Positions 28,930 through 64,000 of a stretch of DNA of 64,000 bases are shown here, one piece after another. Position 1 is the stretch's first letter; each line of letters opens with the position of its first letter. Position numbers and translations under genes: made by a program. The stretch comes from Chthonomonas calidirosea. Its GTDB lineage: Bacteria > Armatimonadota > Fimbriimonadia > Fimbriimonadales > Fimbriimonadaceae. The notes under the pieces are model-generated. The model worked only from the letters and a program-made list of their open reading frames with translations, did no database searches and was not told the DNA's origin. The DNA lies in contig CAMAPH010000006.1 in the NCBI GenBank assembly GCA_945859975.1, forward strand, positions 1 through 64,000. The letters are read 5' to 3'.

Positions 28930-28959
28930 GAACGGAAAACGCAAGAATGGGGATGGAAA

Positions 28960-29599: not shown

Positions 29600-29815
29600 G
29601 GAGTGCTAGTTTTTCAGTCCCCACTTTAGGAGACTCGCATGAAGAAAGGAAAACGCTTCACAGAAGAACAGACCATCAAGGTGCTGCAGGAAATCGACGC
29701 TGGGGCAACTGTCGCTCCGATCGAGAGAGCCTTCATTGCCAACGGCCAATTCATTTGCCGATGGAAAAGTAAACTGGCATGGCCAAAGTGAGCTTGCCGA
29801 AATCAAGGCTTCAGC
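29600..29815 (+). pseudogene. Degenerate IS3-family transposase OrfA remnant
   Basis: AGGAG then ATG at 29639: MKKGKRFTEEQTIKVLQEIDAGATV...RWKSK, stop at 29791; SELAEIKA continues in another frame; no OrfB follows. Confidence 0.7.
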
Positions 29816-29938
29816 ATCAGAACTAGGCTGTGTTATGTGCCCTAAAGCTACCAGGTAGCATCGCAGGCGGGAGGCTCTTTAGGGTTGGTTGCAATGACGG
29901 GCTTCCATAGTTAAGAAGCCATCGTCTGAGGAGCAGAT

Positions 29939-30427: not shown

Positions 30428-30516
30428 ACGACGAAATTCTGGCAGGACTGACCACATTGGATCGGCCGCTTTTTCCCTGATTTGCAATCGGTATCATTGA
30501 GTTTCATCGTTACCAA

Positions 30517-31005: not shown

Positions 31006-31499
31006 CTGACGACTCGAAGCAATTTAGGCACATCCAAATCACAATCAACATCTCAAGATTCTGCAGATCTAACGTTCAGGTCTCGGCCAGATTGGTATCT
31101 CGTGAATTATATTTCAACATTCGCAATTAAATACTATTTGATGCGTAAATTCAGGTTTCCCTTTGGCTAGCGCAGTTGAGATTGTCACGGGATTGTTTAC
31201 TTTTCGCAGGTTTCCGAAGCGGGCCGGATCCCTCGAACTTGAAGTTGCTTTCCTATAGACTTTTCCTGACGTGTTCCGACTCGATTGAGCGACGATGAGC
31301 CGTGCTTGGCCACGAACTGCAAGCACATCCAATCGTGAGGCGCCTCACACGAAGCCGGTACCGGCGAAAATGGGACAGAGCCGAAAGAAAAAGTCAAAAA
31401 ACCTGGCAGAAAGTTTTGGGAACGTTCTTGTCCCGAGAGAAGTCCGCTATCCTGTTGGAGGTTGTGGGGTTCCTACGTCTGGGCCCTTTAGAGTTAATT

Positions 31500-46653: not shown

Positions 46654-47865
46654 GTGAAAGTTCTTGTTGCAGATCGGTTCGAAGAGATTGGCCTCGATGG
46701 TTTGCGTCGTCTTGGCGTCGAGGTGATCTATGAACCGTCACTCTCTGGGCAGAGCCTTGCCGAACGATTACGCGAGAGCGAAGCTGCCGTTTTGGTCGTT
46801 CGCAGCACCGAAGTTCCGGGCGAAGCCATGCGAGAGACCAAGTTGGGCCTGGTCATTCGCGCCGGTGCGGGATACAACACCATCGACATTGACGCAGCCA
46901 GCGAGCTCGGCATTCTCGTCACGAACTGTCCCGGGAAGAACTCGCAGGCCGTAGCCGAGCTGGCTTGGGGACTGATTCTGGCTTGCGATCGACGTATCCC
47001 CGAGAATGTCGCCGACCTGAATCATGGCGTTTGGAACAAGGCCGAATACTCTAAAGCGCGAGGACTTCACGGACGTACATTCGGTGTGATTGGAATCGGA
47101 AAGATCGCCCAGGAAATGGTTGTTCGGGCGAAGGCATTCGGAATGAACGTTGTCGCCTATAGCCGCTGGATGACGCCGGACCTCGCCGCTGGCCTACAAA
47201 TTGGTCGCGCCAGCAATGCCACCGAAGTCGCCCTCATGGCGGATGTGATCTCCGTCCACGTGGCGCTCACCCCAGAGACCAAGGGTTCCCTCGATCACGC
47301 CTTCTTCGACAAGCTTCGCCCCGGCGCCATTTTTATCAACACAAGTCGAGCCGAAGTCGTGGTTCAGGACGCGCTGCTCAAGGCCGTCAACGAGCGCGGA
47401 GTTCGCGCTGGTCTAGACGTGTTCGAAGGTGAACCCACCGGAGGAACCGGAAGCTATTCTGGTGCGCTTCAAAACTTGCCCGGCGTGTATTGCACGCATC
47501 ACATCGGCGCCAGCACGGAACAAGCGCAAGAAGCAATTGCCCACGAAGTCGTACAGATTGTCCGCGAGTATCGAAGTAAGGGCGGAGTTCCAAACGTCGT
47601 AAACGTAAAGCGGGCCGAGGTGGCAACCCACGTGGTCGTGGTTCGGCACTTAGACCGCGTCGGCGTTCTCGCGCACGTTCTTTCCGTCCTCAAAGATGAA
47701 GGGCTAAACGTGCAAGAGATGGAGAATATCGTTCTTGGCGGTGCCCGATCAGCGATTGCTCAAATCTCGGTCGATCGCGAGCCCCGACCAGAGGGACTGC
47801 TCGCGATCAAGATGAACGAGAACGTGTTTGACGTAAGCGTGTTTCAGATCGAAAGAGCCATCTAG
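46654..47865 (+). CDS. serA: D-3-phosphoglycerate dehydrogenase-like protein with C-terminal ACT domain
   Basis: RAGAGYNTID, GIGKIA, INTSRA, LDVFEGEP, HIGASTEQAQ, HLDRVGVLA. Confidence 0.82.
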   Translation: MKVLVADRFEEIGLDGLRRLGVEVIYEPSLSGQSLAERLRESEAAVLVVRSTEVPGEAMRETKLGLVIRAGAGYNTIDIDAASELGILVTNCPGKNSQAVAELAWGLILACDRRIPENVADLNHGVWNKAEYSKARGLHGRTFGVIGIGKIAQEMVVRAKAFGMNVVAYSRWMTPDLAAGLQIGRASNATEVALMADVISVHVALTPETKGSLDHAFFDKLRPGAIFINTSRAEVVVQDALLKAVNERGVRAGLDVFEGEPTGGTGSYSGALQNLPGVYCTHHIGASTEQAQEAIAHEVVQIVREYRSKGGVPNVVNVKRAEVATHVVVVRHLDRVGVLAHVLSVLKDEGLNVQEMENIVLGGARSAIAQISVDREPRPEGLLAIKMNENVFDVSVFQIERAI

Positions 47866-48491
47866 GACTCTTTCAAGGTTAGCGTTGTGGTGCCGCGGCG
47901 GAGAATAACGCTTCGCTCGTTGACGGCTTCCATTTCCCAGCCAAGCGGCCCTTTGCTTCCCTTTCGCCCGATCCACTCGGTGCCGTTCAAAAGCACGATT
48001 GCGATCGGGTGATAGCCATCGATCAAGCCGATCAACTTTGGAGGATCAATCTTCGGTGCTTCTGGCTGGCTAGTGCCATTTTCATCGGGTCGAGTGACCG
48101 GCAGTGGGGAGAGCTGTCCAGTAGGGGCAGGTAAAGGCTCGGGATCCGGCAGTTTTGTGATCCCTGCTGGCGGTGTTGCCTTCACTACCCGCTTTGAAAT
48201 TTCTCGGAAAGGAGTTGCCGGCGCAACGGCCGGAGGGTCCATGAGCGCAACCTTTCCGCTCGGAGATAACCCGGTAGCAACTGCACTAACGGTCCCGCCT
48301 GGAGTGGTCGCGACATCTGGAGTTCCTCCAGAAGAAATCACGATGGGCGCCGCTTCGGCTGTCGGTGCAGGAGCGCCGCCCAGAATCCCCATCGAAGTCA
48401 GAAGTTGGAATCCTACGAATCCAAAGACGATGACCACTCCGCCCACAAGGGCATACATTTTCTTCTGATCTTCTTTCGGAGTCGGCTTCAT
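47862..48491 (-). CDS. Pro-rich pilus/T2SS accessory protein (PilP/GspC-like position)
   Basis: N-terminal TM, Pro-rich linker, small C-terminal beta domain; coupled to the secretin gene. Confidence 0.55.
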   Translation of the reverse strand: MKPTPKEDQKKMYALVGGVVIVFGFVGFQLLTSMGILGGAPAPTAEAAPIVISSGGTPDVATTPGGTVSAVATGLSPSGKVALMDPPAVAPATPFREISKRVVKATPPAGITKLPDPEPLPAPTGQLSPLPVTRPDENGTSQPEAPKIDPPKLIGLIDGYHPIAIVLLNGTEWIGRKGSKGPLGWEMEAVNERSVILRRGTTTLTLKES

Positions 48492-50347
48492 TTGGGAGTC
48501 CCGGGCTTCGCATCATTCATGATGCGAGGCGTTATCGTCACTACAATATCGGTCCTTCTCTTAGATTTCGTACGATTTTTGAACAATTCTCCGATGACCG
48601 GCAAGTCGCCCAAAATTGGGAACTTCGTTAAAGTTTCAGTCTGCTCGTCTCGGATTAAGCCGCCAAGCACCACCGTCTCTCCATCGTTGACCACCACCGT
48701 GGTCTCCGCTTCTCGCGTACTGGTCTGCGGCAACCCGTTAGCGTCGACGCTTCGAATCGTGCTGACTGCTGGATTGACGTGCATCGTGATCGTGCCGTCT
48801 GGGTTAATTCGTGGACGAAGCAGCAAGATGATGCCGACCGGAAACTCTAGAACTTCGATCGTTTGGGCACCCAACGCGCCCGCCGTAGCGATTCGAACCC
48901 GCAACGTGTCGCCGATGAAGACGCTAGCGCTGTCGTTGTCCATGACCTGAACCCGTGGGTTCGCCAAAATCTTCGCGTTTCCTTGGGTGATTTGTGCCGA
49001 GAGCGTTGCGGTCAACGAACCGGGCATGCGTGAAATCTGACCGAGTCCCGCTGGTCGGGTGGTGTTCAAGTTGTTGAAAGTCGTAAGATCGGCCGCTGTC
49101 CCACCAGGCACTTCCAAGAATTGGAGTGGCTGCCAGTTGAAGGTGTTGCCAATGTTGGAGGAGAAGTTTGGCGTCGTTTCAACAACGTTCACGTCCACCA
49201 TGACCTGCGGCGGTCGAACGTCGATTGCTTCCAGCAACCGAATGGCTTCCATCACCCGGGCTTTCGGACCGCGAACTATGAGCCGACGGCCCTGCTCAGT
49301 TGACGTGCGTTGCAGTTGAACGTCGTCTTGAACGCCGCCCTGCTGCCCGCCGCCAAGAGCGCCTTGAGCGCCTTGCTGTTGCTGCTGTCCGCCACCGGCA
49401 CCGCCCTGATCTGCCTGTCTAATTTGCGAACTGATCGATGCGAACAAGCCTCGTTCGGGCGAATATGCCCTCGGCGCGACGAAAACGTCCACGTCCTTCA
49501 TAGACTCTTTGAGGAATCGCTGCAGCGGTCCACTGGTAATGTACTTTGCCTCGTAAACCTCGGTCACGATGCCGGCATCCATCGGGTCGACAGCTTTATC
49601 AAGCTTCTCAACGGCAGCCTTTGCCGCAGTGACGCGCTCGGTCGTACCGGTTAGGGTGACGACGGCACCATTTGCCGTGACGATCACATCAGGGAATAGC
49701 GTGCTCATTTGGGCGACGATTTTGTTGACATCACCCTTGACCGAATAGACCTCGACTGCCCGAAGTGTTGGCGTTTGCGCTTCTCCCGAGAAGTCGTCGA
49801 TGTACTGCTTAGCTTCCTTTAGGTCTTCCTGAATGCCGTAGAAAACGATCTTGTCGCCGATCGCCGTGACGCTTGCCTGCGGAAAAGCGGTCTCAAGGGC
49901 TTTAGCAATCTCGGTCGCCTTAGCCGGATCAACCTGGAATCGAGCCCGGAAGGAAAATGGCTCGAGGGCGCGCTTCATCTCGTCGAGTCCAGCGACCACG
50001 AACGTGTTCTGAGTGCGGCGGAAGGTGAGACCAGCAGCAGACACGGCAGCGCGGACAGCTTCGTCAGCGGAATTGGCAATGATGGTAAGCGTAATCGGTG
50101 TGCGATCTTTGCCCGCGTAAACGATGTTCACGCCAAGTCTGGCGGCCAAAGCGCGGAATACGGACGGCACGGTTGTGTCCGTAAACGACAACCGAACGGG
50201 CAACTGACCTACGCCCGTTACGGCCCCGGTTCGGTTCGATGCCGCCGCAGACGTTACGTCCGCAACCTGTGGCTCGACAGCTGCGGGGGTGGGAACTGGT
50301 GTTCCTCCCAGCAGAGAGATTCCTAACGCAATTGCACTGTGACTCAT
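48488..50347 (-). CDS. Secretin (PilQ/GspD family)
   Basis: PPQVMVDVNVVE, ILANPRV, VGIILLLRPRI, TVVLGGLI, PILGDLPVIGELFK, ITPRI. Confidence 0.92.
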   Translation of the reverse strand: MSHSAIALGISLLGGTPVPTPAAVEPQVADVTSAAASNRTGAVTGVGQLPVRLSFTDTTVPSVFRALAARLGVNIVYAGKDRTPITLTIIANSADEAVRAAVSAAGLTFRRTQNTFVVAGLDEMKRALEPFSFRARFQVDPAKATEIAKALETAFPQASVTAIGDKIVFYGIQEDLKEAKQYIDDFSGEAQTPTLRAVEVYSVKGDVNKIVAQMSTLFPDVIVTANGAVVTLTGTTERVTAAKAAVEKLDKAVDPMDAGIVTEVYEAKYITSGPLQRFLKESMKDVDVFVAPRAYSPERGLFASISSQIRQADQGGAGGGQQQQQGAQGALGGGQQGGVQDDVQLQRTSTEQGRRLIVRGPKARVMEAIRLLEAIDVRPPQVMVDVNVVETTPNFSSNIGNTFNWQPLQFLEVPGGTAADLTTFNNLNTTRPAGLGQISRMPGSLTATLSAQITQGNAKILANPRVQVMDNDSASVFIGDTLRVRIATAGALGAQTIEVLEFPVGIILLLRPRINPDGTITMHVNPAVSTIRSVDANGLPQTSTREAETTVVVNDGETVVLGGLIRDEQTETLTKFPILGDLPVIGELFKNRTKSKRRTDIVVTITPRIMNDAKPGTPK

Positions 50348-50349
50348 GA

Positions 50350-50934
50350 TTACCCTTCCTTGGTTTGTTCCGCTGACTCTTCTGCGAACGGCACGTTCAT
50401 CAGAACGTATCGCGCCAGAACCACGCCAAGTTCGGTAGCCGAATCCGTTCGGCTCCACTTGACATTACTTATTGTGTACATTCTTTGCGAATTTTCAAAG
50501 TCTCGCAAAAAGGCACGGATATTAGCATAGCTTCCGCCAACGCTAAGTTCCGCATAAATCTTCTTGACGCCGGTTAAAGTCTTATCATCTTCCAGCGTGT
50601 AACGGTATCCGCGGCTGTCCAGAACCCCGGCTCCGAATGCCTGGGCGCGCGAACTCAACTTCAGCAAAGTCACGTTGTGAATCTTCGCAATCGAGTTCAG
50701 ATCCGAAACAAATCGTGTTTCTTCGGTCGGACCATCCATCGGCCCAATGCGTCGTTGATACTGCGTAATGTCCTTCGACTTGCTGTTTAGGGCAATCGCC
50801 TTCTTGACGTCTTCGTCTGCCTTAGCAAAGTTGAGCTGAGCACCAATCACCCGGCCAAACTGAATAATCAGGGCGACGGTAGCACCGATGATGCACAGGA
50901 CCGGAAGCAACCAACCTAAAATTCGTGAGCTCAT
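50350..50934 (-). CDS. PilO-like protein
   Basis: N-terminal TM; LSVGGSYANIRAFLRDFENSQRM motif. Confidence 0.75.
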   Translation of the reverse strand: MSSRILGWLLPVLCIIGATVALIIQFGRVIGAQLNFAKADEDVKKAIALNSKSKDITQYQRRIGPMDGPTEETRFVSDLNSIAKIHNVTLLKLSSRAQAFGAGVLDSRGYRYTLEDDKTLTGVKKIYAELSVGGSYANIRAFLRDFENSQRMYTISNVKWSRTDSATELGVVLARYVLMNVPFAEESAEQTKEG

Positions 50935-50935: not shown

Positions 50936-52609
50936 TTATTGTCCTCCCGTCGGGGTCGGCTGAGGTGCCTTTGGATCTACTGTCGGATCAACCTCTGGAA
51001 CCACTGGAAGCGGCTTGCCTGCGTATTCAACCTCGGCAAGGTTGTATGTCCTGGCGCTGAGTTTGAACTCGATGAAGCTGGTGTTCTCTTCCTTCTTTCG
51101 CTCAATTCCGGCGATCGTCGGAGTCGTGAGTGCCTTACCTAGCTGCAGACGGCGCACCATGTCCACGATCAGGCTTTCCTCATTCGTATTGCCCTCGATC
51201 GTCACGTTTTGTTCCTGGCTGATATCGATGGCCTTAATCCCAACGCCGGTCGGGGTGCTGCGAGAAATCTCATCAATGACGGACACCGCGGGCAATCCGT
51301 CCTTGCGGAGCAAATCGGCCTGCTGCACGAGGCGACGAACGGTACGGTCTGCCAACTCGGCCTGTTTACGAATGTTCTCTGCTCGCGTCTTCGTATCCTC
51401 AGTTTGGCGCTGGAGTTCATTGACCTGGTAGCTCCCGAAGAGCCAGCCGCCAAGCCCCACCGCGAGGGCACCGATCGAAACAAGCACGCTTCCCAAAAGG
51501 TTGCGCTGGGTGTCCTTCTTTTGCTCAAGAGCAAAGTCTCGCTTATAGATCTCGACCCGCGGCGCGCCGTTCACGAGGTCGGCGCGGTCCATTAGGGCAA
51601 TGCCGTAAGCCGTGTTATACGCGAGCGCACCTTGAGGCACGCTTTCCACGGGAGAATTCGGTACGAAAGCCCGGACAACGGTTTCGTCCGGGTCGTAGTT
51701 ATTCGACTTGTCACCGAGCCAAGTCGAGAACGCGTCAGTCCAACGTAATTCAATATCAAGCCGAGTTGCAATCGGCTCTAAGAAAGTAGCCATCCGTTCC
51801 GTAACGCTTGTTACGAGCATGCGGCGTGGCAGGGCAGAAACATCAAATTCTCGCTCGAAGTAGTCTACAGAGCGACGGATATCCACCGCGAGTTCGTCAA
51901 TTCTCGCGTCGTTTAGGTCAAGGCGGCCATCCTCGGTTTCAGAAACCAGCAAGTTGGCGCCAACGTTGAGAGACCTATAGAACCATAGTTCGCCTTTGAC
52001 CAAAAGGGTCAAGTCCGCCGAGGTCTCGTGGAAGTTTAGAATGACAACCGATTCTTCGTGCGCCAGAAATGGGACGAGGGCTCGAAGTCGGGCAAACTGC
52101 GCAGGCTCAAGCGAAACCAGGTACAGGTTCTGAGATTCACATGCTTCCTGGAGGTGCAAAACCGTACTGCTGTGCGTCGCCGCAATCAGAACCGGGACCT
52201 CATCTACTGCCTGGCTGTTTGGAGAACGCAGCTTGAAGAATCCGTAGGTTCCCTGGTCTTCTACCAAGTGATAGTGCGCGACTTCCCCATCAACAATCGT
52301 CTTGAGGTCGGCACCGGCCACGGCCGGAACGGAGATTCGGTAGGTCGAAACGCGAGCATCCGGCACCGCAATACTTACGCGGGTGTTGTTGTCAACCTTG
52401 AGCCGCTCAGCAAGTTTCTTGAGTGCCTGACCGACGAGCCCGGGATTTTGGATGAAGCCGCCGCTAACAAGACCGGCCTCGATTTGAAGAATAGCGTGAG
52501 CCGTGACCTGGGATCGATTGCCGCTATGCCGGACGTTTACACCACGAATTTCTGTATCCGTGATTTCGATTCCTACGTAATTGCGATTACGTCCGCGGTT
52601 GAAGGCCAT
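50936..52609 (-). CDS. Fused PilM-PilN pilus assembly protein
   Basis: N-terminal actin-like PilM region (VGIEI, IRRSVDYF), then TM, coiled coil and PilN-like EISRSTPTGVGI..VTIEG. Confidence 0.78.
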   Translation of the reverse strand: MAFNRGRNRNYVGIEITDTEIRGVNVRHSGNRSQVTAHAILQIEAGLVSGGFIQNPGLVGQALKKLAERLKVDNNTRVSIAVPDARVSTYRISVPAVAGADLKTIVDGEVAHYHLVEDQGTYGFFKLRSPNSQAVDEVPVLIAATHSSTVLHLQEACESQNLYLVSLEPAQFARLRALVPFLAHEESVVILNFHETSADLTLLVKGELWFYRSLNVGANLLVSETEDGRLDLNDARIDELAVDIRRSVDYFEREFDVSALPRRMLVTSVTERMATFLEPIATRLDIELRWTDAFSTWLGDKSNNYDPDETVVRAFVPNSPVESVPQGALAYNTAYGIALMDRADLVNGAPRVEIYKRDFALEQKKDTQRNLLGSVLVSIGALAVGLGGWLFGSYQVNELQRQTEDTKTRAENIRKQAELADRTVRRLVQQADLLRKDGLPAVSVIDEISRSTPTGVGIKAIDISQEQNVTIEGNTNEESLIVDMVRRLQLGKALTTPTIAGIERKKEENTSFIEFKLSARTYNLAEVEYAGKPLPVVPEVDPTVDPKAPQPTPTGGQ

Positions 52610-52850
52610 ATTCTAGTTACGTCCGTGTTTCTGACCTGTCGGCCCGCCTCTCCGAAAACCATCCTTGGCTTCCGGTCGGTCAACTTGCCAAAGCAACGCT
52701 CACCAACCGAGGCAGACACGCATTGTCTACACAAAGGATATTGGCTGTCATCCGAACTTTCGGTAGGGCCGGACCGCGGATCGAAGTCAAATTATCAGAA
52801 CTTTCAGCTTGAACAATAAAACTTCGATGCATCTTGCTGGCATCAAACAC

Positions 52851-52882
52851 AAAAAGAGGCGGCGAGGCATCGCCTCGCCGCC
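52851..52882 (-). terminator. Intrinsic terminator after pilin P1
   Basis: GGCGGCGAGGC-atc-GCCTCGCCGCC with an A-run on the + side (U-tract on -). Confidence 0.85.
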
Positions 52883-52910
52883 GGATCGCGGAACATCTTC
52901 AGCCTAACAA

Positions 52911-53303
52911 TTACTGCTGAAGGGTGATGGTTGGAAGATCAGCTGCGGTGCAGTTGCTTCCGGCAGCTGGCTTGATCGTAGCCGAAGCTGCAGTCTGCGT
53001 GAAGGTGTAGTCCGTAGCAAGCGAAGCAGCGCCGGTGCAAGGGTTGACCGGGATGGTGCCACCGAGCTCGGTCGTGATCGCGGAGCCAGGAATGTCGGTC
53101 GCGCTGTACGACTTACCGTTGCTCTTCACGTAAAGAGCCTGAACTGCGGTTGCGATTGCCTTAGCATTTGCGTTGGCCGTCTTGTGTCGCGCATCCTTCA
53201 CCGAAGAAAGGTAGCTAGGAAGAGCGACGGCAACCAAGATGCCGAGGATGAGAACGACGACGAGAAGCTCGATGAGCGTAAAGGCTTTGTTAGACTTGTT
53301 CAT
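52911..53303 (-). CDS. Type IV pilin P1 (130 aa)
   Basis: KA|FTLIELLVVVLILGILVAVALPSY; two Cys in the C-terminal region. Confidence 0.93.
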   Translation of the reverse strand: MNKSNKAFTLIELLVVVLILGILVAVALPSYLSSVKDARHKTANANAKAIATAVQALYVKSNGKSYSATDIPGSAITTELGGTIPVNPCTGAASLATDYTFTQTAASATIKPAAGSNCTAADLPTITLQQ

Positions 53304-53442
53304 TTTATGTTCCTAAACCAGCGGACTTAGTTGGAAAGATTTCCCTTTCGAGCCCCTGCTTTCGTTTACTAGTGTTTATCAGAATCTTTTTATTCGCAAG
53401 GACACCTTCCGGGTACTCAGTTTGTGTGACGGCCGGTCTGAC

Positions 53443-53480
53443 AAAGAAAAGCGCCCGTCCAGACGTATCTGGACGGGCGC
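53443..53480 (-). terminator. Intrinsic terminator after pilin P2
   Basis: GCGCCCGTCCAGA-cgta-TCTGGACGGGCGC plus A-run. Confidence 0.88.
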
Positions 53481-53499
53481 GATTGACGGGACAATGCTC

Positions 53500-53892
53500 T
53501 TACTGAGCGAGGGTGATGACCGGCAAATCCGCTGCAGTGCAGTTGCTGCCCGCGGCTGGCTGGATCGTGGCCTGCGAAGCCGTCTGGGTCAGCGAGTAGT
53601 CAGTGGCGAGCGATGCGCCGCCGGTGCAAGGGTTGACCGGAATGTTTCCGCCGAGTTCAGCCGTGATGCTTGCGGATGGAATATCCGTCGCGCTGTAAGA
53701 CTTTCCGTTTGACTTCGTGTAGAGCGCCTGGACGGCGGTTGCGATGGCCTTTGCGTTTGCGTTGGCGGTCTTGTGTCGGGCGTCCTTCACCGAGGAAAGG
53801 TAGCTCGGAAGAGCGACGGCAACCAAGATGCCGAGGATGAGAACGACGACGAGAAGTTCGATGAGCGTGAAAGCTCTGTTTGTCTTGTTCAT
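53500..53892 (-). CDS. Type IV pilin P2 (130 aa)
   Basis: RA|FTLIELL; paralog of P1. Confidence 0.93.
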   Translation of the reverse strand: MNKTNRAFTLIELLVVVLILGILVAVALPSYLSSVKDARHKTANANAKAIATAVQALYTKSNGKSYSATDIPSASITAELGGNIPVNPCTGGASLATDYSLTQTASQATIQPAAGSNCTAADLPVITLAQ

Positions 53893-54041
53893 TTTATGAC
53901 CCGAATTTTCGGCCCAGGAGTGGAAGAAATCCCTTACTGAAGACCGGACTACGAGATCTATTTTTTATCAGAATCTCGATACGCGCAATGACACCTTTTG
54001 GGTAATCGAATCGTGTCACAACACTTCCGGGGGACAAACGC

Positions 54042-54075
54042 AAAACGGCCCGGATGGCGATTGCCATCCGGGCCG
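54042..54075 (-). terminator. Intrinsic terminator after pilin P3
   Basis: CGGCCCGGATGGC-gatt-GCCATCCGGGCCG plus A-run. Confidence 0.85.
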
Positions 54076-54089
54076 AAGCTCAACAAATC

Positions 54090-54482
54090 TTACTGCTGAA
54101 GGGTGATCGTTGGGAGGTCAGCTGCGGTGCAGTTGCTTCCGGCAGCAGGCTTGATCGTCGCCGAAGATGCGCTCTGCGTCAGAGTGTAGTCCGTCGCAAG
54201 CGCAGCAGCGCCGGTGCAAGGGTTGACTGGGATCGTTCCGCCGAGTTCGGTCGTGATCGCCGAAGTCGGAATGTCGGTCGCGCTGTACGACTTACCGTTG
54301 CTCTTCACGTAAAGAGCCTGAACTGCGGTTGCGATTGCCTTAGCGTTTGCGTTGGCGGTCTTGTGTCGAGCATCCTTCACCGAGGAAAGGTAGCTAGGAA
54401 GAGCGACGGCAACCAAGATGCCGAGGATGAGAACGACGACGAGAAGTTCGATGAGCGTAAAAGCTTTATTAGACTTGTTCAT
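54090..54482 (-). CDS. Type IV pilin P3 (130 aa)
   Basis: MNKSNKA|FTLIE; start set by alignment to paralogs. Confidence 0.93.
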   Translation of the reverse strand: MNKSNKAFTLIELLVVVLILGILVAVALPSYLSSVKDARHKTANANAKAIATAVQALYVKSNGKSYSATDIPTSAITTELGGTIPVNPCTGAAALATDYTLTQSASSATIKPAAGSNCTAADLPTITLQQ

Positions 54483-54621
54483 GGCTGATTCCAGTTGCTC
54501 CCTCAGCCGCTTATATCGCACTGAAGAACACTAACGTTATTGGTCATTTTCATAGTAATTCCATACCTAAAACTAAATGCCAGTAATACTGCGGGTGAAT
54601 TGCAATGATCTGAACAAACAG

Positions 54622-54653
54622 AAAAAGGCCACCCCAGATTGCCTGGGGTGGCC
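54622..54653 (-). terminator. Intrinsic terminator after pilin P4
   Basis: GGCCACCCCAG-attgc-CTGGGGTGGCC plus A-run. Confidence 0.85.
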
Positions 54654-54680
54654 GAAGTACGAGCCTTGAGAATAGAGCTC

Positions 54681-55073
54681 TTACTGAGTTAAAGTGATGG
54701 TTGGAAGGTCACCCGCGGTGCAGTTGGTGCCAGCGGCCGGCTTGACCGAAGCGGAGCTTGCGGACTGCGTCAAAGTGTAGTCGGTGGTAAGCGAAGCCGC
54801 TCCCGTACAAGGGTTGTTCGGAATCGTTCCACCAAGTTCGGTGGTGATGTCGGTTGCCGAAATGTCGGTCGAGCTGTACGACTTTCCGTTGCTCTTCACG
54901 TAGAGAGCCTGAACTGCGGTTGCGATCGCCTTGGCGTTTGCATTGGCGGTCTTGTGTCGAGCATCCTTCACCGAAGAAAGGTAGCTAGGAAGAGCGACAG
55001 CAACCAAGATGCCGAGGATGAGAACGACGACGAGCAGCTCGATGAGCGTAAAGGCTTTATTTGACTTATTCAT
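54681..55073 (-). CDS. Type IV pilin P4 (130 aa)
   Basis: MNKSNKA|FTLIE. Confidence 0.93.
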   Translation of the reverse strand: MNKSNKAFTLIELLVVVLILGILVAVALPSYLSSVKDARHKTANANAKAIATAVQALYVKSNGKSYSSTDISATDITTELGGTIPNNPCTGAASLTTDYTLTQSASSASVKPAAGTNCTAGDLPTITLTQ

Positions 55074-55209
55074 GACCGAATTCCTGTTACTACACCAACC
55101 GCTTGCGTTGTACTGAAGAACACTCTAGTTGTTGGCGGAATTCCTATGTTCTCTAGTGCTGTCTCAGGATAGCGGACAAATGATCTGACGGTCCAGATGC
55201 ACAAAACGC

Positions 55210-55242
55210 AAAAAAGGCCATCCCAGTCTTCCTGGGATGGCC
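55210..55242 (-). terminator. Intrinsic terminator after pilin P5
   Basis: GGCCATCCCAG-tcttc-CTGGGATGGCC plus A-run. Confidence 0.85.
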
Positions 55243-55268
55243 CGAAGCCAACGAGCGAAGCCGTTATC

Positions 55269-55661
55269 CTACTGGGAAAGAGTGATGGCTGGTAGGTCAG
55301 CTAAGGTGCAGTTGCTACCAGCAGCAGGCTGAATAACTGCCGAAGAAGCGGTCTGCACTAGGCCGTAGTCCGTTCCAAGCGCAGCAGCGCCGGTGCAAGG
55401 GTTGACTGGGATCGTGCCACCGAGTTCGGTCGTGATTGCCGAAGTCGGAATGTCGGTCGAGCTGTAAGACTTACCGTTGCTCTTAACATAGAGAGCCTGA
55501 ACTGCGGTTGCGATTGCCTTAGCATTTGCGTTGGCCGTCTTGTGTCGCGCATCCTTCACCGAAGAAAGGTAGCTAGGAAGAGCTACGGCAACGAGGATTC
55601 CGAGGATGAGAACGACGACGAGAAGCTCGATGAGCGTAAAAGCTTTGTTGGACTTATTCAT
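55269..55661 (-). CDS. Type IV pilin P5 (130 aa)
   Basis: MNKSNKA|FTLIE; start set by alignment to paralogs. Confidence 0.93.
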   Translation of the reverse strand: MNKSNKAFTLIELLVVVLILGILVAVALPSYLSSVKDARHKTANANAKAIATAVQALYVKSNGKSYSSTDIPTSAITTELGGTIPVNPCTGAAALGTDYGLVQTASSAVIQPAAGSNCTLADLPAITLSQ

Positions 55662-55828
55662 GACTGATTTCTCGTTGGCCACTGGATTTTAGAGTTCCAA
55701 TGAAGAACGATGATGTTATTGGCACCAGCGATGATTTACTTCAGCCCTTTCGTCCGCGGAACTCAAACTTTTGGTCCGAAGTAACGAAGTGGTGTTGAAA
55801 GCCAAAAGGTGTACAAGCCTTGAGACGC

Positions 55829-55864
55829 AAAAACTCCCCTTCCCGAAGTCGGGAAGGGGAGTTT
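55829..55864 (-). terminator. Intrinsic terminator after pilin P6
   Basis: AAACTCCCCTTCCCGA-ag-TCGGGAAGGGGAGTTT. Confidence 0.88.
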
Positions 55865-55891
55865 GAACTTGCCAATCCGAGCGAAACCGTC

Positions 55892-56284
55892 TTACTGCGA
55901 AAGAGTGATCAGCTTGAGCTCAGAGGTGTCGCAGTTCGATCCAGCCGCTGGCTGAACCGTTGCGCTCGCTGCGGACTGCGTGAGGCCGTAGTCCGTTCCG
56001 AGAACGGCTGCACCGGTGCAAGGGTTGACCGGAATGGTGCCACCGAGTTCGGTGGTGATCGCCGAAGTCGGAATGTCGGTCGCGCTGTAAGACTTACCGT
56101 TGCTCTTCACGTAAAGAGCCTGAACTGCGGTAGCAATCGCCTTGGCGTTTGCGTTTGCGGTCTTGTGTCGCGAGTCCTTAACCGAAGAGAGGTAGCTTGG
56201 AAGTGCAACCGCAACCAAGATGCCGAGGATGAGAACGACGACGAGAAGCTCGATGAGCGTAAATGCCTTGTTGGACTTGTTCAT
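55892..56284 (-). CDS. Type IV pilin P6 (130 aa)
   Basis: MNKSNKA|FTLIE. Confidence 0.93.
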   Translation of the reverse strand: MNKSNKAFTLIELLVVVLILGILVAVALPSYLSSVKDSRHKTANANAKAIATAVQALYVKSNGKSYSATDIPTSAITTELGGTIPVNPCTGAAVLGTDYGLTQSAASATVQPAAGSNCDTSELKLITLSQ

Positions 56285-56448
56285 GATCTATTTCCTGTTG
56301 CTCCCTCAACCCTTCGTGTTGCAAAGAAGAACACTTTATTAGTTGGAAACCGGCACAAAAAATCCAAGGATTTCTTCGAAAATGCCAGTATTTTTACTGT
56401 CCCGTTCAACACTTAGAAATTCCAGCGCCAAAGGCGAAACAGGTGTAC

Positions 56449-56844
56449 TTATTTCGAAAGGGTGATCGCCGGCAGTGACGAAGCGTCGCAGGTGGAACCT
56501 GCCGCGGGTCGAAGGGTCGCGGTCGTTGCCGTAAGCGTCAAAGCATAATCGGTGCTCAACGAAGATCCACCGGTGCATGGATTGCGTGGAATGGACCCAC
56601 CGAGTTCGAACGTGATGTTGACATCACTGATGGCAGCCGCATTGTAGGCCGTTCCTCCGGTCTTCACGAACAATGCCTGAATCGCGGTCGCGACGGCGCG
56701 AGCATTCGCATTTGCGGTCTTGTGGCGAGAGTCCTTCACCGAGGAAAGATACGAAGGCAACGCGACGGCAACCAAGATGCCAAGAATGAGCACCACAACC
56801 AGCAGCTCAATCAGGGTAAACGCGCGCTCAAACTTCCTCACCAT
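56449..56844 (-). CDS. Type IV pilin P7 (more divergent paralog)
   Basis: MVRKFERA|FTLIELL; same Cys spacing, ELGG.IP.NPCTG. Confidence 0.9.
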   Translation of the reverse strand: MVRKFERAFTLIELLVVVLILGILVAVALPSYLSSVKDSRHKTANANARAVATAIQALFVKTGGTAYNAAAISDVNITFELGGSIPRNPCTGGSSLSTDYALTLTATTATLRPAAGSTCDASSLPAITLSK

Positions 56845-56901
56845 GACCCTAGTTTCCCTCAGATCAGGAAAACAAGGGTGTCCCATTTTCTTGGCGAACT
56901 T

Positions 56902-57303
56902 TTATTGCGTGAGGGTGATCGTGCGCATTCCCGCGGAGTCGCAAAGCGTTCCGGCCAGCGGAGACATCGTGGCGGTGCTTGGAGTGAGCATCAGCTGATA
57001 ATCCACCGACAACGAACGTCCCGTGGTGCAAGGATTGATTGGAACCTGCCCGCCAAGCTCAACCAAGATCGCGGCTTCCGTAATGGAGGAGTGGTTGTAC
57101 GCCAATCCGCCCGTACGAACATAGAGCGCTTGCACGGTGATTGCGATCGTCTGCGCGTTTGAATTTGCCGTTTTCTGTCGAGTGTCGCGGACCGAGGAAA
57201 GGTAGGAAGGCAGCGCGAACGCGAAAAGGATGCCGATGATGAGGACCACCATCAGCACCTCAATCAGAGTAAAAGCCTTCGAACGTTTTTTAAAGCAATT
57301 CAT
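56902..57303 (-). CDS. Type IV pilin P8 (most divergent paralog)
   Basis: MNCFKKRSKA|FTLIEVLM; ELGGQVPINPCT. Confidence 0.9.
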   Translation of the reverse strand: MNCFKKRSKAFTLIEVLMVVLIIGILFAFALPSYLSSVRDTRQKTANSNAQTIAITVQALYVRTGGLAYNHSSITEAAILVELGGQVPINPCTTGRSLSVDYQLMLTPSTATMSPLAGTLCDSAGMRTITLTQ

Positions 57304-57360
57304 ACCAATCTCGGTCCAAATGTAAGGCAAAGACGCTTACCGCGCAATTGGAATATTGGT

Positions 57361-57390
57361 CAAAAGGCGAAGTTTCCTCCGCCTTTTTTG
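57361..57390. terminator. Probable terminator between pilC and the pilin array
   Basis: AAAAGGCG-N10-CGCCTTTT hairpin with A/T tails on both sides. Confidence 0.6.
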
Positions 57391-57409
57391 GATTCTTGCC
57401 AGATGGCCG

Positions 57410-58639
57410 TTACTTGCCTGATTTCTCGAACGCCTTACCAAGGCTAAAGATCGGCATGTACAGCGCGAGCAGAACGAACAAGACGATCGCTCCAACCACG
57501 CCGGTCATGATCGGTTCGATCATCTTCGTCATCTTCTCGACCGCGTACTCAACGTCGCGCTCGTAGAACTTGTTCACTTCGTCGAGCATGGCGTCAAGAT
57601 CGCCGCTGGCTTCGCCAGCAGCAACCATCTTGGTGACCATCGGAGGAAACTCGTTGGTCTTCTCCAGCTCAGGCCCGAGGGCCGCGCCGTCTCGAACCGC
57701 GCTGGCCGCCGTCATAACCGCGTCCTTAATCACTGAGTTGGCGGAAGCGCCTGCAGAAACCGCCAGTGCGCGAAGAACCGGAACACCGGCTCGGGTCGAA
57801 CCGGCAAGGGTCTGCACGAACCGCGCAATCGCTACCTTTCGCATGATCGGACCCACCAAAGGCAATTTAAGCGAAATCTCATCCAGGCGTCGCTTTCCGT
57901 TTGGCGTTTCCGCGTAGCGCTTGTAACCGTAAAACGCCAGCCCCATCAGAATCAAGCCGATATACCAATACTTGATCACCGCATTCGAGATGTTGATCAG
58001 CGTTTGAGTAACCGTCGGCAACTCGGCTCGAAGGTCCTTATAAACCTGAGCAAAGGTCGGAACAACCACGAGGAGCATGATCGCAACCGTAATACAAGCG
58101 GCGGCGACAACGATCTTTGGATAGACCATTGCTCCGTTCACTTTTCGCTTCAGCTCTTCCATCCGGTCAAGCTGGTCCGCGGCGATGTCGAGACAGAAGT
58201 CGAGGTTTCCGGCCGCTTCACCGGCTTCAAGCATCGAAACGAGCAGTTCCGGGAACACCTTTGGATACCGTCGGAATTGGTTGGAAAGGCTGTCACCCGA
58301 AACAATGCCGGCCTGGATCTCCGAAAGGATCTCCTTCATCACCGCGTTCTGGGTCTGCTCGTAAAGAATTTCGATGCCCTGCGTAAGCGGCATACCGCAA
58401 CGCACAAGCGTGGCGAGCTGCCGGGCAATAACCACAACCTCAGACGACTTCGGCATCTTCGGCCCCATAAGTCCGCCGCCTTGTCCGGTTTCCGGCTTAC
58501 TATCGCGTTGCTCAAACTGGGTCAGATACAGGCCGTTCTGACGCAACAACGACCGCAACTCATCTGGGTTGTTCGCTTGGAGCAACCCTTTAACAACCGC
58601 GCCTGCACGGTCCCGACATTCATATTCATAAACGGTCAT
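57410..58639 (-). CDS. pilC: Type IV pilus platform protein (PilC/GspF family)
   Basis: RQLATL, AGEAAGNLD, AMVYP, FPPMVTKMVAAGEASGDLD, IEP, LYMPIF. Confidence 0.93.
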   Translation of the reverse strand: MTVYEYECRDRAGAVVKGLLQANNPDELRSLLRQNGLYLTQFEQRDSKPETGQGGGLMGPKMPKSSEVVVIARQLATLVRCGMPLTQGIEILYEQTQNAVMKEILSEIQAGIVSGDSLSNQFRRYPKVFPELLVSMLEAGEAAGNLDFCLDIAADQLDRMEELKRKVNGAMVYPKIVVAAACITVAIMLLVVVPTFAQVYKDLRAELPTVTQTLINISNAVIKYWYIGLILMGLAFYGYKRYAETPNGKRRLDEISLKLPLVGPIMRKVAIARFVQTLAGSTRAGVPVLRALAVSAGASANSVIKDAVMTAASAVRDGAALGPELEKTNEFPPMVTKMVAAGEASGDLDAMLDEVNKFYERDVEYAVEKMTKMIEPIMTGVVGAIVLFVLLALYMPIFSLGKAFEKSGK

Positions 58640-58644: not shown

Positions 58645-60339
58645 TTAATCCTCTTCCATCGCAAATACGCGCATGATCTCACTAGCAGGTACCTGACCTG
58701 CCAACACTTTTTCAATCGCACTTTGACGCATCGTCTTCATTCCGGTGGCAAGCGCACATTCGAAGAGCTCCGCACCAGACGCTCCGGAGAGCACCAATTC
58801 TCGAAGTTTTTCGTTCATCGTCACGATTTCCACCGCTGCCGTTCGCCCGCGGGTGCCTCGTCCGTTGCATCGTTTGCACCCGGTTCCCTTGCCTACCAAT
58901 GGGGGCTTTCCGTCCACCAGAGGAATTCCGACCGCCATGCAGTACTCCTTCTCAATCTCAACCATCTGCCGGCAAGACATGCACACGGTCCGCAGAAGGC
59001 GCTGCCCGAGAATTCCGGTAACCGCCGAAGCGATCAAGAACGGCTCCACGCCCATGTTCTGAAGACGCACCAGAGCACCCGGCGCATCGTTGGTGTGCAA
59101 GGTACTGAGAACAAGGTGGCCAGTAAGGGCTGCCTGAACGGCAATCTCCGCCGTGTCCTTGTCTCGAATTTCACCAACCAGAATCACGTCCGGGTCTTGT
59201 CGAACCAAGGTTCGCAGACCACTCGTAAACGTCACGCCAATCTTCGGATTGACCTGCATTTGGTTGACGCCGTTCAGCTGATACTCAACGGGGTCCTCAA
59301 CCGTGTTGATGTTGATCGAAGGCTCGTTGATGTATTGAAGGCCCGCATAAAGCGTGGTCGACTTCCCGGAACCCGTCGGACCGGTGACCAGCAACAAGCC
59401 GTGCGGTCGCTTGATCATTCGCTCAAAAACAACCTGCTGTTCGGAAAGCAACCCGATTCGGTCGATGCGGGCGAATGTGTTGTTCTTTTCCAACATTCGC
59501 ATACAAGCCTTTTCGCCGTGAACGGTCGGCATGATGCTCAGTCGAACGTCGAACTCCCGGCTGTTATCGTCTCGGATCGTAAAGCGGCCATCCTGCGGAC
59601 GCCGACGCTCGGCGATGTCGAGGCCAGACATGACCTTGAGTCGCGACATCATTGCCAGCATGTGCTGACGCGGCACCTGGATGTGGTCATACAAAATGCC
59701 GTCGATTCGATACCGAACCCGTACCGTGGTTTCTTGCGGTTCGATGTGAATATCTGAAGCACCCGCCGAAACCGCGCCGGTGACCATCTCATTCACCAGC
59801 TTTACGATCGGCGCCGTATCGGCGGCCTGCGGAATCTCTTCTTCCTGGTGCTCGTTGTCGTCCGTGATGATCGCGTCGATGATCGCGCGGGCTTTGCTCC
59901 GAACGTCGAACACGCGTCGGATACCTGCTTCAATGTCGCGCTTCAGCGCGTAGCAGGGAACAATTCGCCGCCCGGTAATGGCGCGCAACTCGTCAACGAC
60001 CTCAAAGTTGAGTGGGTCGTTCATCGCTATGAGCAACCGCTCGTCTTCTTCGCGGATCGGCAGCGCCAGGTTTGTAAGCGCAAAATGCTCGCTCACCATC
60101 ATGGCCACCTCAACGTCGATTTCCTGGTCACCGACGTCGATGAAAGGGAAACCCGATGCCTGCTCAATGAACGGAGCGAGTTCAGAAACCGAAAGCGTTC
60201 CTGCCGTGATTAGGACCTCGGCCAAAGACTCGCCGCTTTGCAAATGGCGCTGCACGGCCTGCTCCAGCTGATCCGAAGGAAGGACCTCGTTCTTCGCCAG
60301 AACCTTTGCGAGTCGATCGATCGTTCGGCCGTCCATCAT
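58645..60339 (-). CDS. pilB: Type IV pilus assembly ATPase (PilB/GspE family)
   Basis: ASDIHIEP, GPTGSGKSTTLY, TVEDPVEY, RQDPDVILVGEIRD, LSTLHTNDA, CxxC...CxxC. Confidence 0.95.
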   Translation of the reverse strand: MMDGRTIDRLAKVLAKNEVLPSDQLEQAVQRHLQSGESLAEVLITAGTLSVSELAPFIEQASGFPFIDVGDQEIDVEVAMMVSEHFALTNLALPIREEDERLLIAMNDPLNFEVVDELRAITGRRIVPCYALKRDIEAGIRRVFDVRSKARAIIDAIITDDNEHQEEEIPQAADTAPIVKLVNEMVTGAVSAGASDIHIEPQETTVRVRYRIDGILYDHIQVPRQHMLAMMSRLKVMSGLDIAERRRPQDGRFTIRDDNSREFDVRLSIMPTVHGEKACMRMLEKNNTFARIDRIGLLSEQQVVFERMIKRPHGLLLVTGPTGSGKSTTLYAGLQYINEPSININTVEDPVEYQLNGVNQMQVNPKIGVTFTSGLRTLVRQDPDVILVGEIRDKDTAEIAVQAALTGHLVLSTLHTNDAPGALVRLQNMGVEPFLIASAVTGILGQRLLRTVCMSCRQMVEIEKEYCMAVGIPLVDGKPPLVGKGTGCKRCNGRGTRGRTAAVEIVTMNEKLRELVLSGASGAELFECALATGMKTMRQSAIEKVLAGQVPASEIMRVFAMEED

Positions 60340-62968: not shown

Positions 62969-63175
62969 TTACTTCATGCCGGAGCCGACGCGGGCTTCCG
63001 CGCCTTTTCCGGCTTCCGATAGCCCGCGAGACTGCATTTCAACGCCACCCTTTGCGGTTTCACCCGGAACGGGTGCCGCATTGGGGTCGCTTGCCACGGC
63101 CGGCGGCTCAGAGTTGCAACCAACCAAGAGAATGCCAACCGCAACCAAGATTGCGAGCTTTATTCGTTGTCCCAT
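62969..63175 (-). CDS. Small lipoprotein
   Basis: Lipobox LVGC; overlaps the 3' end of the upstream prepilin-like gene. Confidence 0.6.
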   Translation of the reverse strand: MGQRIKLAILVAVGILLVGCNSEPPAVASDPNAAPVPGETAKGGVEMQSRGLSEAGKGAEARVGSGMK

Positions 63176-64000
63176 AGATACTGCGACTTGTCGATCAACT
63201 GCACGGCACTGGCGTTGATGGTTCTATTCCAGTTCGTTCCAATGGCGAGAGCGCCTGGGCTCAGCTTTCGAACGCTGCCATCCGCAAAGCCAACGGTCGC
63301 CTTCTCCGCCGCTCGGAGGCTTGTGCCACCGGTGAGCGAGCCAGCCTCGTACGACTTGATTCCCATCAGCGCTGGGTCACCCCAGAAGCTACCAACGCCC
63401 CAACCGTCAAAGCACCAATCTGCTCGGGTTCGGCAGTCTGGCGGGTCCACGATCACGCTCGTGTCGGGCCCGATCGCTCCGTAGCTGTAGTACTGACCGC
63501 CGGTCAATCGGCTCTCGGAAGTCTGCTCAAATCGTCCGGTGAGCATGACCGTATTCGATGGGGCGCCAAGCGAGCTCTGCGAACGCGTCGATGGAACGAC
63601 CAAAGGCGACGGACCTTCGTATGGAGCGAGGGTCGAATAGTTGTAGCCAAACGTTCCCGTTAGGGTGACCTGGTTTACGAAACCAAAGGCCGAACCTCGG
63701 GGGACGCGTGGAGCCAGTGGATCTTCGAACAAGTCAGCCGACTTAATGTACGGAAGGATGTTCCAGACCCAGCTCGAATAGCCGATGAAGTTGCCGGAGT
63801 TGTCCCATCGGTTGGCGGGGACGAAAGTGTCCTCGGTGTCGCCCATGTAAAGCAGGTGTCCAAGCACGATCTGCTTGTTGTTGCTAATGCTGGCAGCGGA
63901 CTTGGCTGCTTGCTTCGCCTGAGCGAAGACTGGGAATAGGATGGCAGCGAGGATTGCAATGATCGCAATCACGACGAGAAGTTCGATAAGTGTAAATGCT
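63160..64000 (-). CDS. Prepilin-type N-terminal cleavage/methylation protein (H-X9-DG-like family), 5'-truncated by window edge
   Basis: AFTLIELLVVIAIIAILAAILFPVFAQAK...SISNNKQI..YMGD; C-terminal GFADGSVR. Confidence 0.88.
   Translation of the reverse strand, partial: AFTLIELLVVIAIIAILAAILFPVFAQAKQAAKSAASISNNKQIVLGHLLYMGDTEDTFVPANRWDNSGNFIGYSSWVWNILPYIKSADLFEDPLAPRVPRGSAFGFVNQVTLTGTFGYNYSTLAPYEGPSPLVVPSTRSQSSLGAPSNTVMLTGRFEQTSESRLTGGQYYSYGAIGPDTSVIVDPPDCRTRADWCFDGWGVGSFWGDPALMGIKSYEAGSLTGGTSLRAAEKATVGFADGSVRKLSPGALAIGTNWNRTINASAVQLIDKSQYLWDNE

Follow-up and report, generated by a model that had tools for sequence, protein, structure and literature searches.

A tandem array of eight complete type IV pilin genes inside a pilus locus of the Fimbriimonadaceae

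The locus described here is an array of eight tandem type IV pilin genes within a type IVa pilus gene cluster, located in a 64,000-nucleotide stretch of DNA from Chthonomonas calidirosea (Armatimonadota, Fimbriimonadaceae). Several described systems offer points of comparison. In Streptococcus sanguinis, two or three major pilin genes lie in tandem (PilE1/PilE2; PilA1–A3), and subtle differences between the heads of their products affect pilus activity (PMC11121087). The pilins PilA1–PilA6 of Haloferax volcanii share a hydrophobic N-terminal domain that is almost fully conserved, and each of them can act as the major pilin; preliminary data indicate that subsets of these pilins are used under different conditions and that the pilins differ in their effect on microcolony formation (PMC4371748). 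For myxobacteria, one to seven pilA homologues have been reported per genome, with conserved N termini and variable C termini, and this was attributed to duplication (PMC6060248, PMC3776727). Stigmatella aurantiaca carries two tandem pilA genes in its type IVa pilus cluster, an arrangement termed unusual, and four homologues are transcribed in DSM17044 (PMC6060248, PMC3776727).

As in S. sanguinis, highly similar major-pilin genes are adjacent within the pil locus of the present genome, and PilE1 (8pfb) is among the best profile matches to the array family. Pili of S. sanguinis are reportedly heteropolymers. Unlike that system, the locus examined here has eight copies, a diderm-type machine with a secretin, six genes with their own terminators and constrained spacers, and minor pilins that lie outside the locus. 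H. volcanii likewise has several pilins with a conserved N-terminal hydrophobic region, but in this archaeon the pilins are not co-regulated with the pilus-biosynthesis genes (PMC4371748), whereas here they form one tandem array inside the machine locus. The extra copies described in myxobacteria lie mostly outside the cluster and are less alike, and the in-cluster tandem there comprises two genes as opposed to eight. With Neisseria pilE/pilS, the array has in common the many pilin segments, the combination of conserved regions with a variable exposed head, and gene conversion between copies. Neisseria has one expression locus together with promoterless, 5′-truncated silent cassettes; in contrast, all eight copies of the array are complete genes with a start codon and a leader, and several are found in one RNA library. 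In the portions of the literature available on tandem pilin genes and multiple major pilins, no array of this size was described in a bacterial type IVa locus, and the corresponding portions on Fimbriimonas pilins and on type IV pili of Armatimonadota held nothing on such arrays.

Array layout and pilin identity

The stretch analyzed (hereafter the window) comprises positions 1 to 64,000 of contig CAMAPH010000006.1 in GenBank assembly GCA_945859975.1, which corresponds to contig 6 of a draft genome referred to as G000 (101 contigs, 3.12 Mb, 95.8% complete). Two further genomes were used for comparison, namely G014, a closed one-contig genome of 3,287,291 bp from another species of the same genus, and G124, from a third species, in 7 contigs. 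Eight complete pilin open reading frames (ORFs) were found on the minus strand between pilB–pilC and pilMN–pilO–secretin and are termed A to H in the order of transcription; coordinates of all features are collected in Table 1. The ORFs and the Pfam families of the flanking genes bore out the original prediction, made from the DNA letters, of eight intact paralogous pilins at this position. Each of the eight begins with ATG and encodes a short basic leader, Ala at position −1, Phe at +1, Glu at +5, and two Cys residues (C89 and C118 in H numbering), so that start and leader, which had been predicted to be intact in every copy, were found to be so in 8 of 8 ORFs. It had also been proposed that the six copies of 130 residues, C–H, are near-invariant over roughly their first 65 residues. 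Variable sites across 17 sequences representing C–H in three species number 4 of 65 in residues 1–65 as against 31 of 65 in residues 66–130, in agreement with that proposal. Pairwise identity among C–H is 82–96% for the proteins and 76–92% for the genes. Successive starts from C to H are 623, 588, 591, 590, and 589 nt apart, a spacing that indicates a duplicated unit of ∼590 bp.

Given that the window derives from a metagenome-assembled draft in 101 contigs, a collapsed or expanded repeat could be suspected as the source of such an array. The copies C–H nevertheless differ by 8–24% in nucleotides, and the longest exact run common to two of them is 92 nt. The independent closed genome G014 (3.29 Mb) carries these eight genes too, with order and spacing unchanged, and seven array genes are present in the 7-contig genome G124. 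An assembly artefact can hence be discounted almost entirely.

For assignment of the pilin family, A, B, and H were matched to PF07963 (30.6–34.2 bits; cut-off, 21.2) and TIGR02532 (27.0–29.4 bits; cut-off, 16.3). Gly, Ala, or Ser is accepted at −1 in prepilins (PMC4371748). Ala occupies this position in every array prepilin of G000, G014, and G124, and the five array pilins of a further relative, G008, have Gly in three cases and Ala in two. A profile of the 37-member family matched solved pilins over most of the length, among them S. sanguinis PilE1 (8pfb), Shewanella PilA (9laa), and Thermus PilA5 (8qqj). When genome contigs were searched with the family alignment, in which the generic pilin helix acts as the pattern, 73 loci from many phyla were returned, which matched at the N-terminal helix alone and were set aside as uninformative for the array.

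Structure prediction was carried out for H. The AlphaFold2 (AF2) model, with a predicted local distance difference test score (pLDDT) of 88.6, consists of a helix at residues 10–60, a short helix at 73–79, and strands at 107–110 and 126–129. In a Foldseek search with this model, the top seven rows were type IV pilins with weak E-values (best, gonococcal pilin 1ay2; probability 0.95, E 0.038), and no match was obtained at E ≤ 0.001. The top seven rows of VIA-align, with Z of 4.5–6.2, contained type IV pilins and one pseudopilus of a type II secretion system. As these Z values are moderate, the sequence-profile matches to solved pilins carry most weight. C118 is conserved in at least 90% of the 37-sequence alignment, and equivalents of C89 and C118 are present in all eight copies; the two Cys residues are predicted to bound a disulfide-type C-terminal region of the pilin head.

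All eight pilins were placed in one clade with the single-copy post-pilC pilins of relatives, in a quick tree whose support comes from the Shimodaira–Hasegawa-like approximate likelihood ratio alone and which leaves 15 of its 47 inner branches unresolved. Two PilX-like proteins of 458–477 residues and minor pilins of 164 and 199 residues are encoded in G008 by the block that separates the pilin array from pilMN. Homologues of this block lie far from the pil locus in G000 (C23:38841–42327) and G014 (C1:161202–165517), and the block is likewise relocated in G124. Because the minor-pilin module is found elsewhere in these three genomes, the eight array genes are not the priming set; they descend from the major-pilin gene rather than from priming minor pilins. 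Their products may be the major subunits of the filament, for which their place after pilC, that of the single pilin gene in relatives, is indirect support. The near identity of residues 1–65 suggests that the variants could co-assemble. The relocated module itself is made up of a PilX-like protein of ∼430–460 residues and a pilin of 160–207 residues, and this unit is present twice.

Conservation and selection across related genomes

One-to-one pairing of orthologues between G000 and G014 was obtained for all eight pilins. For a wider view of copy number, 23 related loci (from 20 genomes) with orthologous pilB–pilC were surveyed with a motif-based finder, which may miss genes. Short-pilin copies at the position after pilC numbered eight in G014, seven in G124, five in G008, four in G129, three in each of G015 and G087, and at least two in G133, where the contig ends; thirteen loci had one copy, and in three loci none was detected. 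In the loci with a single short pilin after pilC (13 of 23), 2–3 kb of larger pilin-like genes typically follow, and then pilMN. The comparison of number and order that had been suggested as a check on the array thus returned a fixed order in G000 and G014, seven copies in G124, and at most five in others. Tandem expansions of the same pilin family in other species of the genus or family are independent, with four copies in G129 (L022), four on contig C165 of G007 (L016), and three each in G087 (L035) and G015 (L015); two copies of G129 are identical beyond the leader. As these expansions fall in separate clades of the quick tree, amplification has recurred.

By spacer similarity, the array of G124 retains positions A, C, one D/E hybrid, F, G, and H, with B assigned by order. 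The coding sequence at position C in G124 is closest to that genome's own position-G gene (identity 0.92–0.95 over nt 1–294), and in three further G124 copies the middle segment resembles other copies of that genome more closely than it does the positional orthologues. These patterns show that gene conversion and a single unequal crossover have taken place among close species, and the array evolves by duplication or loss together with gene conversion. A donor look-up for the differences between G000 and G014 found these to be clustered, for example at the 3′ end of F, which is suggestive of short conversion tracts.

The same comparisons bear on the possibility that the filament is an obligate heteropolymer in which each pilin has a fixed role, as with multiple flagellins or archaellins, and in which A and B are low-abundance specialized pilins. 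Such an arrangement could account for the fixed gene order and the one-to-one orthologues in G000 and G014, and for the character of A and B, which share less with H (57 and 70% identity), are not separated by a terminator, and have been kept in all three species. Copy number at this position, on the other hand, varies among relatives (8, 7, 5, 4, 3, and 1), and one position is missing or merged in G124 and the content of another was replaced through conversion, all of which is hard to square with fixed roles for C–H. An obligate heteropolymer of this kind is therefore regarded as improbable.

Selection on the copies was assessed from the ratio of nonsynonymous to synonymous substitution rates (dN/dS) and from the proportions of nonsynonymous and synonymous differences (pN and pS). 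Between G000 and G014, per-copy dN/dS was 0–0.26 over the eight copies. For C–H pooled, 75.5 synonymous and 17.5 nonsynonymous differences were counted (pS 0.124, pN 0.010), and the flanking genes pilB, pilC, pilMN, and pilO gave pS of 0.115–0.182 and pN of 0.002–0.010; every copy is under purifying selection between the species. In the head half of C–H, pN was 0.017 as against a pS of 0.103, from which it follows that copy-specific head residues are conserved between species. Among paralogues, dS was 0.37–2.0 in the head half and 0.16–0.78 in the helix half; the paralogues are old. Orthologue pS was 0.147 in the helix half as opposed to 0.103 in the head half, with no lowered synonymous rate in the helix, so the low helix dS among paralogues points to partial homogenization rather than to synonymous constraint.

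Pure gene dosage, whereby the copies would just raise pilin output and their differences would be neutral, has some points in its favor. The N-terminal halves are near-identical, the length is equal in all six copies of C–H, several copies occur together in single RNA libraries, and major pilins are required in very large numbers. Because the copy-specific head residues of the one-to-one orthologues are conserved across species, however, pure dosage is judged quite unlikely. The paralogues are also old and have not been homogenized despite evident gene conversion, and their spacers fall into two upstream sequence classes. Dosage under equal purifying selection had been named at the outset as the finding that would overturn a pilin repertoire, and the copy-specific conservation between species argues against it.

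Terminators, upstream regions, and RNA libraries

Directly 3′ of each gene from C to H (6 of 6), a GC-rich stem of 11–15 bp is followed by a U run. The six hairpins have minimum free energies (MFEs) of −28.7 to −33.2 kcal/mol and z values of −3.0 to −5.9 against shuffled sequences; for five of them, 0 of 200 shuffles folded as well, and for H, 2 of 200 did so. Folding against shuffles in this way confirmed what had been noted from inspection, namely a strong hairpin and U-tract of its own after each 130-residue copy; the original description of the array was correct on all points that were checked. The stem sequences of the six terminators are unrelated to one another, indicating that the hairpin structure has been kept while the sequence diverged. 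In the D and F hairpins, the differences between G000 and G014 fall in the loop, based on alignments and predicted structures. For the 57-nt gap between A and B, a folding scan found a hairpin without a U-tract and no terminator, and the terminator candidate after B is weak; A and B are probably bicistronic.

The six spacers upstream of C–H differ between G000 and G014 in 42 of 1180 aligned columns (3.6%); the pooled C–H pS is 12.4%, and the adjoining spacer between H and pilMN differs in 31 of 301 columns (10.3%). The C–H spacers are thus more conserved than synonymous sites. They fall into two upstream sequence classes, C–F (class I) and G–H (class II), each with a conserved block of its own (Table 1). 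In the C–F spacers of G000 and G124, a further invariant AAC..GAA block lies close to the start codon. The class II block closes with the motif TTCTGATAA, which occurs before pilMN too (52792–52800). On alignment, these blocks look like regulatory elements, whereby the class I block may be a promoter or operator and TTCTGATAA of class II a putative sigma-70-like extended −10. A pilin promoter of the PilR/sigma-54 type is unlikely, because a search of G000 for sigma-54 (PF04552; genome 95.8% complete) gave 0 matches. Rfam at permissive thresholds returned four rows for positions 52000–58000, all far below the gathering score, and no riboswitch or known leader.

Lake-water metagenomes from a number of studies contain sequence words near-identical to the array, and six metatranscriptome runs from lakes or other freshwater contain them at small shares. 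For comparison with the array at an identity of at least 93%, four RNA runs were taken, one from each of four studies; the assembled contigs come from related populations that are 93–99% alike. Contigs of run X15 matched copies H, G, F, E, D, and C; those of X16 matched H, G, F, D, and C; those of X17 matched H, G, F, D, and B; and those of X18 matched H, G (39 nt only), and F. Pilin A was matched by contigs in 0 of the 4 runs. Contig depths reached 91 on the pilins versus 3–4 on the edges of pilMN and pilC, but such depths cannot rank genes. Contig ends of two studies coincide 47–50 nt upstream of H, 48–50 nt upstream of G, and 28–30 nt upstream of F, a weak hint of transcript 5′ ends. None of the 28 RNA pieces listed (of 33) spans two pilin genes, with the spacers mostly uncovered and the contigs breaking at repeats. 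The lack of two-gene contigs was considered as a sign of monocistronic transcripts and was not counted, as contigs break at repeats and holes prove nothing. The matches fit simultaneous expression of several copies at the population level, rather than of one exclusively, in bulk data that cannot resolve single cells.

A switchable repertoire, in which one or a few copies would be expressed at a time by way of phase variation or condition-specific regulation, would be in keeping with a terminator and a constrained spacer for each copy, with the two upstream sequence classes, and with the preliminary data on pilin subsets in planktonic versus sessile H. volcanii (PMC4371748). No truncated silent cassettes were found, however, nor long inverted repeats flanking the units, nor a recombinase among the neighbors scanned, and five or six copies were matched in one RNA library, though bulk data allow cell-to-cell heterogeneity. 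Apart from the terminator hairpin, an inverted-repeat scan of the array gave three imperfect pairs, short at 14–19 nt, and no invertible segment, and the scanned genes of the window and its flanks included no recombinase family. A repertoire of this kind is accordingly considered rather unlikely, and programmed one-at-a-time switching is not supported.

Two specific forms of variation were also considered. Cassettes of the Neisseria pilE/pilS type were ruled out, as all eight copies are full length with a start and leader and RNA contigs match up to six of them per run. Inversion of the Moraxella tfpQ/tfpI type found no counterpart, there being no flanking long inverted repeats and no recombinase among the window genes scanned. 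The original prediction of a switchable set of separate major pilins therefore fared differently in its two parts. Switchability was not supported, as no 5′-truncated cassettes, long inverted repeats, or recombinase among the flanking genes scanned were found and RNA contigs matched five or six copies in single libraries. The repertoire stood in that the copies are full length, of the major type, separately terminated in the six 130-residue cases, and kept distinct by purifying selection; their separate transcription is something we infer.

A model of the array, neighboring genes, and significance

With all of the above taken together, we consider it fairly probable that the array is a jointly maintained set of major-pilin isoforms, terminated separately, from which pilus surfaces of mixed or tunable composition arise. 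A unit of ∼590 bp, consisting of upstream region, pilin, and terminator, would have been duplicated repeatedly to form an old, maintained eight-gene type IVa family in this freshwater, Fimbriimonas-like bacterium, and the ancestral unit would be the single pilin gene found 3′ of pilC in most relatives. The common leader and N-terminal helix of C–H would let one prepilin peptidase and one PilBC/MNOQ machine process and polymerize all of these pilins, with variation in C–H confined to the exposed α–β loop and the disulfide-bounded head. Each of C–H would be a terminated unit of its own with a conserved spacer, in two upstream classes (C–F and G–H), and A–B would be bicistronic. Expression of several copies in one population could then produce pili or cells with mixed head variants, in proportions tuned gene by gene. 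Purifying selection on each copy would keep the set diverse, and gene conversion and unequal crossing-over would move patches and change copy number. Independent promoters, co-assembly, and a purpose in surface variety are the parts of this model that we infer from the DNA.

A further elaboration can be offered tentatively. The isoform genes may be individually addressable, whereby at least two promoter classes and the per-gene terminators would determine in what ratio head variants are made, or would leave the choice among them to single cells. For a planktonic lake bacterium, combinatorial surfaces could then serve in attachment to partners or in escape from pilus-specific phages, and conversion between expressed copies would give new combinations without silent cassettes.

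Several observations weigh against the reading of the array as co-maintained major-pilin isoforms. The structural similarity to solved pilins is only moderate (Z 4.5–6.2; best Foldseek E 0.038). A sigma-70 consensus scan of positions 52000–58000 gave 2 promoter-like sites where 2.4 were expected, none of them upstream of a pilin, so the conserved blocks are at most putative promoters. RNA contigs show presence and not levels, strand, or transcript ends, with DNA carry-over not excluded, and one RNA-library piece (53855–53989) reaches upstream of the proposed −10 of G. Finally, no 10-codon window among the paralogues exceeds a pN/pS of 0.49, and hence there is no sign of the diversifying selection expected under an arms race.

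The genes of the pilus machine on either side of the array are listed in Table 1. The true start of the secretin is probably further downstream than that of the longest ORF, because the latter overlaps pilO. A PilM–PilN fusion was met in the related loci as well, where it shows as one tblastn match. The Pro-rich ORF of 209 residues that directly follows the secretin may encode an undescribed accessory protein of the pilus machine. In the G000 genome, one prepilin peptidase (Peptidase_A24) and four PilT-family genes above the cut-off were found. Three of the PilT-family ATPase genes are in tandem at C38:8315–11551, all above the TIGR01420 cut-off, and the fourth, at C13:34546, adjoins a second pilC and the sole prepilin peptidase. 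A search of the G000 genome with pilin H gave 52 further N-terminal matches beyond the eight array genes, mostly in ORFs of 250–350 residues, and these represent a large pilin-like family typical of the lineage. The part of the genome paper on Fimbriimonas ginsengisoli that was available counts 79 PulG-like genes and is silent on tandem arrays (PMC4072686). At the end of the window, a DUF1559 prepilin-like protein (63160–63999) runs off the edge.

Further from the array, positions 1–19000 of the window hold a polysaccharide and exosortase locus, with EpsH (6038–6946), DUF3485 (5388–6062), and a Wzz/ParA-type chain-length kinase (7090–9147). The locus continues with four GT4 glycosyltransferases, a Wzy_C O-antigen-ligase-like gene (14146–15417), a sugar transferase (16430–17113), and GlmS. 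The Wzy_C family also takes in pilin O-glycosyltransferases. The heads of the array pilins are Ser/Thr-rich. Between 28000 and 32000, GC content falls to 0.51 and GC skew is reversed; four ORFs without a Pfam match (28611–30939) precede a 1046-residue subtilase with a P-domain and Ig-like domains (31302–34442), and this region may be an acquired island.

Table 1. Features of the pilin array and the surrounding pil locus (window positions)
Feature	Coordinates	Strand	Details
pilB, assembly ATPase	58645–60339	−	Pfam T2SSE (E 3.9e-130) and MshEN; NCBIfam type IV-A PilB best, 569.6 bits, below the equivalog cut-off of 675.65
pilC, platform protein	57410–58639	−	Pfam T2SSF (E 3.1e-61); 99% identity in G014 and G124
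Hairpin and T run 3′ of pilC, possible terminator	57333–57389	−	From sequence reading; just weak sRNA/terminator-like Rfam rows below the gathering score
Pilin A	56902–57303	−	133 aa; N_methyl motif; 57% identity to H; 1:1 orthologues in G014 and G124; dN/dS 0.05 versus G014
Pilin B	56449–56844	−	131 aa; 70% identity to H; 57 nt 3′ of A; dN/dS 0.06
Class I upstream block (CCAA, 10 nt, GTTCTTC)	56326–56346 before C; 55702–55722 before D; 55115–55135 before E; 54523–54543 before F	−	Invariant columns in an alignment of 7 upstream regions from G000 and G124
Pilin C	55892–56284	−	130 aa; dN/dS 0.09; RNA-library contigs in 2 of 4 runs
Terminator of C	55826–55864	−	Perfect 16-nt arms; MFE −33.2 kcal/mol, z −4.41
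Pilin D	55269–55661	−	130 aa; dN/dS 0.03; RNA-library contigs in 3 of 4 runs
Terminator of D	55205–55243	−	12-bp stem; MFE −30.8 kcal/mol, z −4.47
Pilin E	54681–55073	−	130 aa; 0 nonsynonymous and 18 synonymous differences versus G014; RNA-library contig in 1 of 4 runs
Terminator of E	54618–54653	−	12-bp stem; MFE −31.3 kcal/mol, z −5.40
Pilin F	54090–54482	−	130 aa; dN/dS 0.26; RNA-library contigs in 4 of 4 runs
Terminator of F	54036–54075	−	13-bp stem, 11 GC pairs; MFE −32.4 kcal/mol, z −5.40
Class II upstream block (GGTGTC.TTGCG ... TTCTGATAA)	53961–53997 before G; 53373–53408 before H	−	50-nt block, 78% identity between G and H spacers
Pilin G	53500–53892	−	130 aa; dN/dS 0.26; matched by contigs of all 4 RNA runs, just 39 nt in one
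Terminator of G	53441–53480	−	13-bp stem; MFE −29.0 kcal/mol, z −5.85
Pilin H	52911–53303	−	130 aa; dN/dS 0.02; RNA-library contigs in 4 of 4 runs; AF2 mean pLDDT 88.6
Terminator of H	52848–52882	−	11-bp stem, 10 GC pairs; MFE −28.7 kcal/mol, z −3.02
pilM–pilN fusion	50936–52609	−	557-aa ORF; Pfam PilM_2 at residues 13–223, PilN at 444–520
pilO-like gene	50350–50934	−	Weak PilO match (E 0.0058), below cut-off; position kept in relatives
Secretin (pilQ)	48488–50458	−	Pfam Secretin (E 5.3e-45); 109-nt overlap of the longest ORF with pilO
Pro-rich 209-aa ORF directly after secretin	47862–48491		No Pfam or NCBIfam match; 98% identity in G014, 74% in G124

The array is a large and well-preserved instance of an already known multi-pilin pattern, and it holds nothing categorically new to type IV pilus biology. 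It stands out by how many copies it has, by a terminator and a constrained spacer for individual genes, and by minor pilins that have moved elsewhere; within the lineage, the major pilin has been expanded in tandem repeatedly. If it is true that the isoforms mix in the filament or serve different conditions, the locus would be a natural system for studying how one machine for type IV pili copes with many subunits that can replace each other. The upkeep of surface variety without silent cassettes could be followed in it too, and it offers a clear example of how purifying selection on single copies is balanced against gene conversion between them.

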